From Eledone cirrhosa (taxonomy: Eukaryota), in the NCBI GenBank assembly GCA_964016885.1, contig OZ024747.1, positions 41,974,001-42,038,000 of the forward strand: 64,000 bases of DNA, read 5' to 3'. The first letter of the stretch is position 1; every line of letters begins with the position of its first letter. The notes beneath the pieces are model-generated. The model saw only the letters and a list, made by a program, of their open reading frames with translations, did not search any database and was not told the DNA's origin. The translations under genes were made by a program, and so were the position numbers. This document shows positions 21,221 through 57,390 of the stretch, one piece after another.

Positions 21221-22193
21221 AATAGGGGATAAAATTCTACCCTGGTAAAGCACATAAAAACTACGGGTGGAACAGTAAATACAAATTAATAAAATAATCA
21301 AAATATACATACCTCCACTATAACGATATATACCTGGACATATACGCTATATATACACACATATATTGGCATAATATATACAACACATACATACATATAT
21401 TTCATGTTTCGCTATGAAAAATGCGAAGAATCATAATACTCGCAGGAGCTTTTCAACTGGTGTCCCTGCTTCTTGGGAACCTCACATACTAAAGGGAGAG
21501 AGGGAATATAACTAACCTCAGGAAGTGCATACGGGTTAGCCCAGGGCAGCTTGAATACGGTATCAGCGGTCCATAGTCAATCAAGTGTTGTATATATTAT
21601 GCCAATATATGTATATATAACGTATATCTTATGTCCAGGTCATCATCATCATCACCGTTTTACGTCCGTTCTTCCATGCTAGCATGAGTTAGATGGGTTG
21701 TCCTGTTGTGGGCAGTGTCCAGTCGGTTGACCTTGTCTTGCTCATATGGGAACTGATTCTGGCTTGATTTCTAGAGCTGGATGCTCTTCCTAACACATAG
21801 CTCATTTACAGTGAGTGCTGGGTGCTTTTTTTCCACGGCACCTCCACGTCCACTTTACAGTGTGGGCTGGGTGTTTTTTTGCCGTGGCACCTCCATGACC
21901 ACTTTCCAGGGGAATGATAGGGACCTCAGTCCCTATCATCTCATTTCTACAGCTGAGTAAATTGGAGCAATGTGAAATAAAGTGTCTTGCTCAAGGAAAC
22001 AACACATCACCCGGTCTGAGAATTGAACTCACAACCTTTTGATTGCAAGCCCAATGCTCTAACCACTAAGCCATGCACCAGGTATATATCGTTATAGTGG
22101 AGGTATGTACATTTTAATAATTTTATTAATTTGTATTTACCGTTCCACCCATAGTTTTTATGTGCTTTACCAGGGTAGAATTTTATCTCCTAT
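21221..22193. repeat. Imperfect inverted repeat (21221-21386 vs 21585-21640 plus 22078-22193); right arm split by a SINE
   Basis: Reverse-complement matches read by eye. Confidence 0.8.
21641..22077 (-). mobile_element. SINE family B copy with CCAGGT target duplication
   Basis: Homology to 55593-55920; CCAGGT at 21635-21640 and 22078-22083. Confidence 0.85.
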
Positions 22194-48400: not shown

Positions 48401-49764
48401 ACATTCTTGAAAAGTACAAAATGGCGCTATAACTGTATCACATTAATAATTAAAATCTTTTCTATCTCATACTGCAAATTTTTACTATGATCTGTCAACT
48501 AGTGAAGATACTATAAACATCTGAATTAACAAATTTGGTTTTAGATATTTTATACTAAATTATTACAGGATGTTAATGTCCTCTAAACTGGGAAACCTGA
48601 CACTCACACACTCTCACACATGCACACACTCACACATAATTTATAATTTATTTTAATCTATTTTTTATAATTTACTTTAATCTACTCTGCATTTAAATTT
48701 CTTTTCTTTTTTTTATCTTTTATTTTATATTCTTCTGTCAGTTGTAGCATGTATTTGTTGTTTTATTTCTTTATATTATTATTATTATTATATATATATA
48801 TTGGGGGGGGGTTCTAATTTTAGTATAAGGCCAGCAATTTTTTGGTGGTGGGTACAATTATATCGACCCCAGTATTTGACTGGTACATAATCTTATTAAA
48901 CTCGGGAGGATGAAAGGCAATGTTGACCTTGGGTGGATTTGAACTCAGAATTTCATTGCCTTTCATCGTTCTGGGGTTGATAAGATAAAGTACTAGTCAA
49001 GTAGTGAGGTCAATATTATCGACTTTCTTCTTCCCCCATATAGCTGGCTTTATGCTAATATTAGAAAGGATTATTATAACTATAATTATTATTATTATTA
49101 TATATATGTTGGATTGTATTGATTACATTAACCCTTTCACCAACGAAACAATCTTTAAATCAATCACATTGTCATGTCCTTGAGTTATTACAATATCAAC
49201 ATAGATACATTGAAGATAATTGTTTTAATAATTCTCAGTGATTTCTAAACATTACACAAATAATGTACATATGTAAGGAACTCTTATGAATTGGCTAACT
49301 GCCTGTTTTCATATTTTCTAGTTGTGAAAGGATTAATCTCTTATATTATATAATAATTTTAAAAAATATTCTGTTGATATAAAATATGTAAACCTGTAGA
49401 TATATTATATATATTTTTTAATATTATCTTAATATTGTAATATTTATATTATTTCAATTTAAAGGAAATAATAATGGAAATGATTAATCTAATTCACCGT
49501 TATTCAAGTTGTCAATTTGAAACAAGTTTTAAATTTATTTGTTAAAACATTGTAAATCAGTAACTTTTAGTTAATTATATCATCATCATTTTTATATACA
49601 TACATACATAAGATGCTGTCTGAAGAGGACCTGTCCCACCCTTGCAAACAGGAAAAAGCGGGCGTAAAATGATGATATATATTATCTGATATCATCATCA
49701 TCATCATTATTTTACGTTTGCTTTTCCCTGTTTGCAAGGGAATATATATTAATATATATTATAT

Positions 49765-49993: not shown

Positions 49994-50392
49994 TATTCTC
50001 AGTCACAGCTGCAACAAATCCAGCCAAAGCGCCAACAAACTCCACCTTTGCCAATTCCCAGTAGTTACTATAATGATGACCCGGGATATAGACCAAGATT
50101 AATGAGTATGAAGGTCGCACCGACTCACGTGGATCCTGATGATTTCGATGAGCATGGTTCCTTAGAATCCATTGTTCCACACAGGCCACGTGGTCAGACG
50201 ATATCGATTCCATCACCGCACCACACCTACCAGACCCTAAAGAAGGTGCAGCAAGACAGTCAACAGAAAGCAAAGGAGGAGAAGGATGAAGTGAAGGGAG
50301 GTATTGATCCTAGCTTTGTCTTTCTCCAATTGTATGATGGCTTAATATGTTTGTCCTCTCCTGACATTCCTCTGCTGTTGCCCAACAATCAG
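49994..50392 (+). CDS. TSC2: TSC2 exon (YSQSQ...RPRGQTIS...GIDPSFVFLQLY...LLPNNQ)
   Basis: cttcag/gtgagt; matches RPRGYTIS and GINPSFVFLQLY. The acceptor could instead be the in-frame CAG ending at 50002. Confidence 0.9.
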
Positions 50393-50738
50393 GTGAGTTT
50401 CATCATCATCATCATCATCATTATTTTTATGTCCATTTTTCCACACTTGCATGAGTTGGACATTTCTTCAAATATCAACTTCTTTGAACTAGACATAAAT
50501 TAGACAGCATAAAGGCTCAAATTCATTGTTTATTGATATATGAGTAGTTAATGGTCTGTATTATATCACAACCACCGGCACTAACACCATCACCACCACC
50601 ACCATCACCACCACCAACACAACCACCGCCACTAACACCATCACCATCACCACGATCACCACCACCACCATCACCATCACCACCACCACAACCACCACAA
50701 CCATCACCACTACCACCACAACCATCACCACCACCACC

Positions 50739-50959
50739 ACAAACATCCCGAATTAAGCCGTACAGTGTCTAGCAACCATCGTTGCTCATTTGTTCAACAC
50801 TGACAAAGGAACGCTGTACGTTCAATCATCTGACAGGAAAGTATACGTTGTTGACAATAGCTAATAAGCTTGAAACTAGTACAGCGTTCCTTTGTCAGTG
50901 TTGAACAAATGAGCAACGATGGTTGCTAGACACTGTACGGTTTAATTCGGGATGTTTGT
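50739..50959. repeat. Inverted repeat (81-bp arms, 59-bp spacer) around a hammerhead motif
   Basis: 50739-50819 is the reverse complement of 50879-50959 with one mismatch. Confidence 0.9.
50846..50886 (+). ncRNA. Minimal type I hammerhead motif, U3-A8 variant, palindromic stem III
   Basis: CGTTG-TTGACAA-T-AGCT-AATA-AGCT-T-GAAAC-TA-GTA-CAGCG. Confidence 0.65.
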
Positions 50960-51168
50960 TTACAAACACACCGAGCATTATAATAAATATTCGGTGAATC
51001 CATACGTACATATATATATATATATGTGTGCATGTATGTATATATATATACATACTACTGTACGCCTGTATACATATATGTATGTACGTATACATACTTA
51101 TATTTAAGTAACAGTCGTACTAAGAGTGAGAAATGAAATTTCGTTTCATTTTTCCGTATATATATGTA

Positions 51169-51203
<35 letters not shown>

Positions 51204-51206
<3 letters not shown>

Positions 51207-52696
51207 TATAAAGAAACAGTCAGCAAGGTTAGAATTAACAACGAATATAGTGAAGAGTTTAGCGTAAAAGTTGGCGTCCATCAGGGCTCTGTTCTCAGCC
51301 CCCTACTATTTATTATTGCCCTTCAGGCTATAACAGAGGAGTTCAAGACAGGCTGCCCATGGGAACTCCTATACGCAGACGACCTGACACTCATAGCGGA
51401 ATCAATGGCCGAGCTAGAGAAGAAATTCCAAACATGGAAGCACGGCCTAGAGTCAAAAGGACTTAAAATTAACCTGGCTAAGACCAAAGTTCTAGTTTGT
51501 AGGAAAGAAAACAAGGCGGCGGTCCCTTCTGGGAAATGGTCGTGCTCGGTATGTAGGAAAGGCGTAGGTAGAAACTCCATCTTATGTCCTAAATGCAAAG
51601 TATGGGTGCATAAAAGATGTAGTGGGATCACAGGTAAGCTAACTAAGAACATAGACTTTACATGTGGCCGGTGTTCTGGTGCAATAAGTAGCAGCAAGTG
51701 CCCACAAAATACTAGCTCTTTCAATTGCGCAGAGGGTTCTATAGAAATAGTGGACAGCTTCCGTTACCTGGGCGATAAAATCAGCAGTGGGGGAGGGTGC
51801 TCTGAAAGTACTGTAGCTAGAGTCAGAACTGGTTGGAAAAAGTTCAGAGAGCTTATACCACTATTAGCTGCTAAAGGGTTCTCCCTAAAAATGAAAGGCA
51901 GGTTGTACGATGCCTGCATACGAACAGCAATGTTGCATGGTAGTGAGACCTGGGCATTGTGTGCAGAGGATATACGCAGACTAGAGAGGAACGAAGCTTG
52001 CATGCTCCGCTGGATGTGTAACAGTAATATACGTGAACGGCAAAGCATAAACGAACTAAGGAAAAAATTAGAGATAAGAGGGATCAGATGTTGTTTACTC
52101 GAGAGAAGGCTGCGTTGGTATGGACACGTGATGCGCATGAAAGTCGATAGCTGTATTACAAAGTGCAGGGCAATAAAGATAGACGGTAGCCACGGAATAG
52201 GCAGACCTAGAAAAACATGGGATGAGCTGATAAACTCCGACCTCACACACTTACACCTCTCCAAGACAATGTCACTGGACCGTGACCTTTGGCGGTACTC
52301 AGTAACAGAGAAGACCCGCCTTGCCAGTAGGCATCTCTAACAAACTACACCCCGTCCCGCCACCACCCCCACCCCATCCACACCACCCCGTTCTATGTAA
52401 AGTTATGTTGGTGCCGCGCCATCCAGGCCAAAACAAATGAGATCGTGTAGGTGTCACGACAAAAAAACACACAGTCCACGCTGTAATGTGGCCGTGTAGG
52501 CAACACGGTAAAAACCTCCCAGACCCACACTGTAAATGTGGTTGGTGTTAGGAAGGGCATCCAACTGTAGAAAACCTGCCAGACAGTCCTATGCGAGCAA
52601 GACAATCACTCTTGCCTCAAGTGGGACTACCCCCGTCCAAACCCATGCATGCGTGGAACACGGACGTTAAACGTTGATGATGATGATGATGATGAT
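51204..52696 (+). mobile_element. RTE-clade LINE, 5'-truncated, uninterrupted ORF fragment to 52340; inserted in (TA)n
   Basis: GVHQGSVLSP, YADD, zinc-finger insert, FRYLG, GRPRKTW; (GAT)n tail. Confidence 0.95.
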
Positions 52697-53993: not shown

Positions 53994-54073
53994 TATGAGT
54001 CCATTAATTCTGTATAGGAATATTTAAGCTTTTTTCTTGAATAAATTTCTGTTCTTTCGTTTTTATATCACAG

Positions 54074-54160
54074 GATACACAACGATCATTAGATATCTTA
54101 GACTTTATTCCATCCTATGAAACACACAAAATTGGTGTGTTATATGTTGGTGAGAACCAG
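54074..54160 (+). CDS. TSC2: TSC2 exon, start of GAP domain ([29 protein letters not shown])
   Basis: cacag/gtaaat; IPSY.THKI.VLYVG motif. Confidence 0.97.
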
Positions 54161-54617
54161 GTAAATAAGTTATTCAATTTACTCTTCTATCTGTTGCCAT
54201 CATTGTTATTATTATTATTATTATTGCAGCTCTATGGAAAAAAACAAACAAATTTTAGAGAGTTCTATTTAAATTAAAATCTTTCAACATAATTTTATAT
54301 AAGAACCTTATATTAATGAAATAATTAATAATTTTTGTAAATCCCTCGAAATTCTTCATTAATTGAAATCAAGTGTATTTTATTAGAAATATAGTCACAA
54401 AAGAGTTTAACTGTGCCTCTTGAACTTGTGTCATAATGTTTAAGATTTTAATGATATATCTTTGGTTTTGTTCCATAATTATCACACAAACATCACAATA
54501 ATATCCTAGATTTATTATTCTTCCTCTTTAGTATGGTGACAAAACAAGAAAAAAACAGTCTTTAACTCCAGAACCATTTTAAAAATATTCTTCTTCTTTA
54601 TATTTCTGCTTCTCCAG

Positions 54618-57029: not shown

Positions 57030-57390
57030 AGTCACCCGCATAGTCAGGGCCATACGCAGTAACTGGTACCGCAGCATACTCATTAAATGCTACAAGGAAA
57101 AAAAGTAATGCCCTAGAAAGGAGCAGCTACAGAGGAATAAAACTAATGGACCAAGTTATGAAAGTGACAGAAAGAGTTCTAGTACAACTAATTAGGGAAA
57201 GTGTCAAATGGGATGAGATGCAGTTCGGTTTTATGCCAGGTGTGAGACAACTACAAGAAAAGTTCTTAGCTGAGTGTAAGCCTCTATGTCTAGCTTTTGT
57301 TGACCTAGAGAAAGCCTTTCACAAAGGACCCTGACCTGTCATCTGGTGATCCCTAAGGGCACTAGGTGTAGAAGAGTGGTTTGTGAGAGT
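57030..57390 (+). mobile_element. Degraded RTE RT fragment
   Basis: YRGIKLMDQVMKV, MQFGFMPG, AFVDLEKAF. Confidence 0.85.

Follow-up and report, generated by a model that had tools for sequence, protein, structure and literature searches.

The TSC2 locus and its hammerhead motif

The window, by which we mean the whole 64-kb stretch of octopus DNA analysed, contains the tuberin/TSC2 gene on the + strand, identified by its Rap_GAP exons and by solved-structure matches topped by tuberin; one TSC2 exon of 136 aa is 95% identical to Octopus sinensis tuberin, suggesting an Octopus species as the source. Exon mapping places a repeat insertion in a 3.7-kb intron of this gene, between exon matches ending at 50392 and starting at 54071 (Table 1). 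A sequence-only reading made earlier had put a hammerhead ribozyme on the sense strand of a TSC2 intron, and this is borne out by both the gene identification and the exon mapping. The same intron holds, directly after the (AT)n tract, a 5'-truncated RTE-type LINE fragment on the TSC2 sense strand (51207-52340) with an open 377-aa frame carrying RVT_1 and a PHD finger, and a second LINE reverse-transcriptase fragment, judged by eye from its translation, lies in a later TSC2 intron (57044-57334). A further inverted repeat with 38-nt arms (87%) is found in the intron preceding that of the insertion (49639-49740).

The insertion, which reaches about position 51157, is built around an inverted repeat of 81 nt (50739-50819 and 50879-50959) with 99% complementarity, whose predicted fold has an energy of -156.4 kcal/mol (z -25), a stability that none of 200 shuffled sequences equalled. 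Its two arms belong to two opposite-facing copies of one repeat, and the dinucleotide AC at 50818-50819 is a microhomology common to both. A hammerhead descriptor, composed after the motif was seen, matched the window once and 30 shuffled windows not at all, so that the motif is a single ribozyme without a dimer partner in these 64 kb. Its letters are as first described, including the palindromic stem III (ACTAGT, 50875-50880), but stem I extends to 6 bp and stem II is closed by a U.U mismatch. An Infernal/Rfam-type scan, proposed earlier as a check, did not recover the window copy as a hammerhead, either at gathering score over the whole window or up to E 10 at the locus; the E-value scan of the locus returned miRNA-model noise only, on the hairpin and the microsatellite. 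The sole match at gathering score in the window is tRNA-like (22016-22073 on the - strand, 31.6 bits) and probably represents the head of a tRNA-derived SINE.

Table 1. Positions, in window coordinates, of the insertion, its ribozyme and the surrounding features
Feature	Position	Strand	Remark
Upstream TSC2 exon match	50024..50392	+	Donor CAG/GTGAGT ~350 nt 5' of the insertion
(ACC/ATC)n microsatellite adjoining the truncated outer end of the inverted arm	50569..50738	.	No visible target-site duplication
Inverted arm (second, opposite-facing repeat copy), unit positions -3 to +78 from the cleavage site	50739..50819	-	Outer end reaches neither standard 3' end
Direct copy of the ~429-nt unit, 5'-truncated at -64, reaching the long 3' end	50818..51157	+	
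Type I hammerhead motif	50845..50887	+	6-bp stem I, ACGTTG 50845-50850 with CAGCGT 50882-50887
Core UUGACAA (TTGACAA)	50851..50857	+	Family form CUGACGA; two transitions, C3>U and G8>A
Stem II AGCT-AATA-AGCT (50859-50870), 4 bp, loop AAUA	50858..50871	+	Closed by U.U mismatch 50858/50871
GAAA	50872-50875	+	Sequence
Palindromic stem III ACUAGU, 2 bp + 2-nt loop	50875..50880	+	Expected to need a second copy (dimer model, PMC4209133)
Predicted scissile bond after GUA (triplet ends 50881)	50881..50882	+	Pairs with the upstream arm in the predicted fold
Tail, ~60 nt between the short (+216) and long (+276) family 3' ends	51104..51157	+	
(AT)n microsatellite target at the 3' junction of the direct copy	51158..51209	.	
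Downstream TSC2 exon match, start of the Rap-GAP region	54071..54166	+	Exon mapping

The repeat family and its ribozyme

The 166 nt around the motif have 2,158 candidate places genome-wide, and the 40 that were scored are 96-100% identical. A 35-nt ribozyme pattern with positions 3 and 8 left open gave 5,816 exact matches in the genome compared with none for a control pattern. For a closer analysis we took 143 loci of ~3 kb and removed 13 overlapping ones; an intact ribozyme region was the criterion for all of the resulting 130, of which 30 were selected because they resemble the window and the others from the pattern lists in chromosome order, about half from the lists of U3 or A8 variants. 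The repeat unit of the window's family is ~429 nt long (420-448 in the arrays seen), has a GC content of 37% and no ATG-initiated ORF longer than 68 aa. At least two whole ribozymes in one arm are present at 44 of the 130 loci; the window copy, shorter than a monomer, has a single one. At one locus (448-2378) a five-unit array alternates unit variants of 420 and 422 nt, as would be expected from a dimeric template or from later duplication.

With a looser pattern (9,583 matches, 2 for the control) we found sister families whose units of 466-469 nt are 61% identical overall to the window's family. They carry GUC, GUU and GUA triplets, and an array of one of them reaches about 15 units in one fetched stretch. 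Since their arrays are long and their copies 97-99% alike, the sister families are probably younger than the window's family. Contigs from four sequencing runs, aligned to a family stretch, show stem I variants (T>A/G at -34 together with G>T at +3), and diverged fragments of the repeat, the ribozyme region among them, occur in contigs of two other organisms.

We examined the ribozyme in an alignment of ten chosen, related sequences from a few families. Six of the 15 pairs change on both sides, 96% of the cells pair, and helices I and II are paired to 100% and 90%, respectively; structures slid along the alignment pair at 29-46%. None of 500 shuffles reached the covariation score, although this control is generous as the ten sequences are related. 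The core letters are invariant in all aligned sequences except the window copy. Thus, the core is kept and the stems covary across sister families, the behaviour on which the sequence-only reading had staked its hammerhead.

The family form has the type I core, CUGANGA, GAAA and UH, with a Watson-Crick 3-8 pair. Its helices, of 6 bp in helix I, about 4 bp in helix II and a short palindrome in helix III, match in size those of the canonical metazoan type I form. The G10.1-C11.1 pair is replaced by U.U in the window's family and is intact in the sister families. Taken together, the sequence features suggest that the repeat encodes a canonical metazoan type I hammerhead ribozyme family, for which self-cleavage is predicted. 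The label 'minimal' given to the motif at first had to be dropped: the minimal hammerheads of Penelope elements share with it the type I topology, the palindromic stem III and the dimer requirement, but, according to PMC4209133, combine a helix II of 7-8 bp with a helix I of 4-5 bp and an unpaired nucleotide before helix II, whereas the octopus ribozymes have a helix II of 4-5 bp and a helix I of 6 bp.

Two sister copies match the full Rfam model Hammerhead_HH9 with E-values of 8e-7 and 1e-5, their scores of 37.8 and 34.2 bits lying below the gathering score of 52. The amniote intronic hammerheads of this model are likewise of type I and located on the sense strand of introns. HH9, however, is one ultraconserved motif whose helix III is stable, in contrast to the window hammerhead, a young repeat copy in ordinary decay.

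This decay also accounts for the core of the window copy. Among the 5,816 genome matches, 5,583 (by subtraction) are C3-G8, 110 U3-G8, 120 C3-A8 and 3 U3-A8, the last number comparing with 2.4 expected from independent decay (Fisher p 0.52). The U3-A8 combination, taken earlier for a natural compensatory form, is therefore the outcome of two ordinary transitions and, at 3/5,816, an accident rather than a family trait. In this respect it differs from the Penelope minimal hammerheads, among which Schistosoma Cercyon has U3-A8 as a natural core with ~1,300 hits (PMC4209133). As U3 and A8 still form a Watson-Crick pair, the core of the window copy may be competent; the papers searched give no measured cleavage activity for U3-A8.

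Tandem units (about 150-450 bp) with a type I hammerhead, a GC content below 50% and neither coding capacity nor LTRs are the hallmarks of non-LTR retrozymes, and these are the features found here. Retrozymes of this class occur, in addition, as linear and circular RNAs of monomer length. Metazoan non-LTR retrozymes are described in two reports as short non-coding tandem units with type I hammerheads, low GC and thousands of copies, the mussel units having ~350-390 bp (Cervera & de la Pena 2020, PMC7229834; Li et al. 2026, 10.64898/2026.07.22.740005). The octopus family resembles them in its tandem non-coding units, canonical type I hammerhead, low GC and copy number. Even the U.U mismatch at the base of helix II has a counterpart in axolotl HHR_Amex2, which still cleaves and does so better as a dimer. 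By its sequence the repeat family is a non-LTR retrozyme; no octopus hammerhead or retrozyme family came up in the literature searched, which covered few subscription papers and repeat databases.

Insertion anatomy and the arm in TSC2

The 3' ends of the family pile up at two positions, +216 (short) and +276 (long) from the cleavage site, and 140 of 160 such standard ends run into (TA)3 or longer. Head-to-head inverted pairs occur at 75 of the 130 loci. Four pairs are cut by the locus edge, leaving 71 to be scored, and 26 of these, the window's included, have at least one non-standard outer end. The remaining 45 pairs comprise 44 with one short and one long end, one with two long ends and none with two short ends (p 1e-12 against even chance). 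The same arrangement was read by hand in 29 of 29 pairs of the sister families, with 4 further pairs non-standard and 1 cut off, so that the one-short/one-long rule holds in 73 of 74 pairs overall. The overlaps at the junction between the arms are mostly 0-4 nt long, and the two arms of a pair diverge less from one another (4.0%) than from other loci (5.8%), as seen in 54 of 60. A simple fold-back, in which the short arm is copied from the cDNA of the long arm, was considered as a general model and rejected because the short arm exceeds the long arm minus its tail in 24 of 44 pairs.

A head-to-head copy, a tail at one end, variable 5' truncation and a microsatellite target are features of Penelope-type insertions, and all are present here. 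This finding, together with the family arrays, is in line with the original proposal of a retrozyme or Penelope-type insertion. It is hardly conceivable that the element is a MITE or another DNA transposon with 81-bp terminal inverted repeats: the long, near-perfect inverted repeat of the window would fit, but family homology extends 200 nt beyond its right arm, the window copy has no target-site duplication, fixed terminal inverted repeats are not found, and the inverted junctions differ from locus to locus, which rules out this type of element. A conserved hairpin, GAAAYGAAA...TTTCGTTTC, is found in the tail of both family groups (window 51104-51157 and the sister tails), and the short 3' end sits in the loop of a small CTTA/TAAG hairpin. 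Together they form a candidate signal for protein binding, placed between the two start sites.

Endonuclease-positive Penelope-like elements, as portrayed in Arkhipova 2013 (PMC3846280), Craig 2021 (PMC8557442) and Frangieh 2024 (PMC11167929), differ from the octopus retrozyme in several respects: the latter has no ORF, its tail measures 60-74 nt instead of 30-40, its tail asymmetry is near-absolute (73/74) and its hammerhead is canonical, not minimal. Conversely, retrozymes with inverted head-to-head copies, with two set positions of the 3' end or with (TA)n targets are not mentioned in the consulted text of the two retrozyme reports (PMC7229834; 10.64898/2026.07.22.740005). No rule of two-ended priming is described in the literature searched, which covered few subscription papers.

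The inverted arm of the window had attracted attention by its end, which lies, as claimed, within 3 nt of the predicted scissile bond and was thought to have been set by self-cleavage. The arm, however, runs past the bond, pairing with G16.2, U16.1 and A17. T50817, which matches the inverted arm alone, is the complement of A17 on the 5' side of the bond, implying that the template ran through the cleavage site unless this base was untemplated. Corrected for the picking of loci, 226 5' ends were counted in the family, 175 of them in the unique part of the unit, and their spread is even: none of the 175 is at +1 (0.4 expected), one, the window's own, is within 3 nt of the cleavage site (2.3 expected), and three are within 5 nt (3.8 expected). 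Since a cleaved 3' product would lack A17 and the site shows no excess of 5' ends, the end of the arm was not set by self-cleavage. A similar role of the cleavage site for 3' ends was considered and discarded: of the 19 non-standard ends, three fall within 6 nt of it where 0.9 would be expected (p 0.056), but each extends 3-6 nt beyond the site. For Penelope, Frangieh et al. (PMC11167929) report that hammerhead cleavage is unnecessary for insertion and that no reads end at the site, and the 5' ends of the retrozyme agree with this result in that the cleavage site is not an insertion end.

The arm nevertheless affects the predicted fold of the ribozyme. In its presence formation of stem I costs 13.9 kcal/mol and has a probability of 8e-8, compared with 0.79 without the arm, which agrees with the earlier expectation that the hairpin would sequester the 3' strand of stem I. 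In equilibrium folds of growing transcripts the probability of stem I is 0.96 when the transcript ends at 50887 and falls to 0.006 by 50890. The models thus predict that the arm buries the lone ribozyme, with no sign of a second, regulated state. An arm end set by self-cleavage combined with a hairpin that switches cleavage of the TSC2 pre-mRNA, as the sequence-only reading had suggested, could draw on the sense orientation in the intron, the arm end next to the scissile bond, the preservation of the 3-8 pair by both core changes and the brief co-transcriptional opportunity for stem I in the equilibrium model. We consider it very improbable, as it conflicts with the distribution of 5' ends and the A17 complement, with the chance frequency of U3-A8, and with a penalty of 14 kcal/mol on the only ribozyme of the window that no alternative state relieves; moreover, inverted arms are routine in the family (75/130). 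The copy also bears the marks of ordinary decay. Of 237 unique positions in the direct copy, 10 do not carry the base most common in the family, and 7 of these are rare C>T or G>A changes. A third change in the ribozyme, G>A at 50840, disrupts a base pair on the far side of stem I's internal loop, one that the other nine of the ten aligned sequences retain.

How the window obtained its arm is taken from the family, the outer end being non-standard with no (TA)n on that side. We regard it as unlikely that the arm arose after insertion by a local event outside retrotransposition, i.e. a fold-back or template switch during DNA replication or repair. The non-standard outer end adjoining the (ACC)n tract is compatible with such an event, as is the divergence of the arms at 1 of 81 nt compared with about 4% between the direct copy and other loci; yet head-to-head pairs are the norm of the family (75/130 loci), 17% of the comparisons with other loci are equally close over 81 nt, and at the sole mismatch it is the arm that has the family base, the direct copy carrying a C>T change.

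We therefore favour, with a probability of roughly 85%, the interpretation that the window contains a decayed two-armed insertion of a ~429-nt non-LTR retrozyme, likely made by a borrowed Penelope-type reverse transcriptase/endonuclease, with a ribozyme that is predicted to be inactive in the TSC2 pre-mRNA. Tandem transcripts would self-cleave as dimers and may circularise. The enzyme would cut (TA)n and prime one cDNA at either DNA end, using a different start site for each, and two cDNAs on related tandem or circular RNA would stop at random points and be joined head to head via microhomology. In the window the direct arm would have used the long site and the other arm would have lost its outer part by later deletion or started by internal priming; the junction would have come to lie beside the cleavage site by chance, two transitions later giving U3-A8. 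TSC2 is very likely unaffected, given one decaying copy whose ribozyme is predicted to be masked, and the family matters modestly.

A coding Penelope-like element and the mobilisation of retrozymes

The genome also contains an abundant coding element with reverse transcriptase (RT) and GIY-YIG motifs, for which a first look gave 40,122 candidates. It has a hammerhead of its own, of the minimal type and different from that of the retrozyme, a 60-nt tail and head-to-head pairs, and its two ends lie 60 nt apart at (TA)n targets. Eight pairs were fetched, and all seven readable ones combine one short and one long end. The Penelope-type assignment is based on motifs recognised by eye and on Atlas look-alikes, which carry HTH_animal, GIY-YIG and RVT_1, since Pfam gave no family for the 1,061-aa stretch of the element or for four ORF fragments. 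Compared with a published passage, and by its CX4CXXC linker only, the element appears Neptune-like.

Sequence comparison of the retrozyme with the coding element revealed no clear homology, the best match being 18 of 21 nt in antisense orientation (E 0.011). ORF fragments at the family loci indicate that other Penelope-like families are present as well. The genome comparison suggested by the sequence-only reading thus had a mixed outcome: tandem retrozyme arrays were found, and no autonomous element with an RT and GIY-YIG ORF bounded by the repeat was detected in the ORFs and 5' flanks of the 130 loci of ~3 kb. This result bears on whether the repeat is a detached pLTR of an autonomous Penelope-like element, its copies being 5'-truncated stumps and not a free non-autonomous family. 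Such an origin is quite unlikely in our view. It would explain the insertion anatomy identical to that of the coding element, and an origin of retrozymes from pLTRs is argued for in 10.64898/2026.07.22.740005. In the 5' direction, however, the copies enter another repeat unit and never a common ORF, the 66 free 5' flanks listed have no junction sequence in common, and arrays reach about 15 units in one sister family stretch.

In contrast to homology, anatomy connects the two elements, and their shared anatomy is anatomical evidence for Penelope-type machinery moving these retrozymes. New here are the near-absolute one-short/one-long rule and its occurrence in a non-coding retrozyme. A joint reading, for which we see the chances as evenly balanced, is that the two related groups, with no fewer than 15,000 ribozyme copies between them, arise by strictly two-ended Penelope-type insertion, in which both ends of the cut (TA)n would be primed, at the short and the long site of the same hairpin-bearing region of a tandem or circular RNA.

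If this reading is true, the 73/74 rule, with 7/7 in the coding element, would be the trace left in the genome by an enzyme acting as an asymmetric dimer, and the genome would contain thousands of long perfect hairpins, many of them intronic, that are open to RNA editing. It would also provide direct anatomical evidence of what mobilises animal retrozymes. How this mobilisation occurs is still put forward as a hypothesis (10.64898/2026.07.22.740005), and the mechanism of Penelope insertion has been worked out only in part (PMC11167929). This octopus harbours both young retrozyme families and an abundant coding element whose insertions have the same anatomy, which makes both questions testable in one system.
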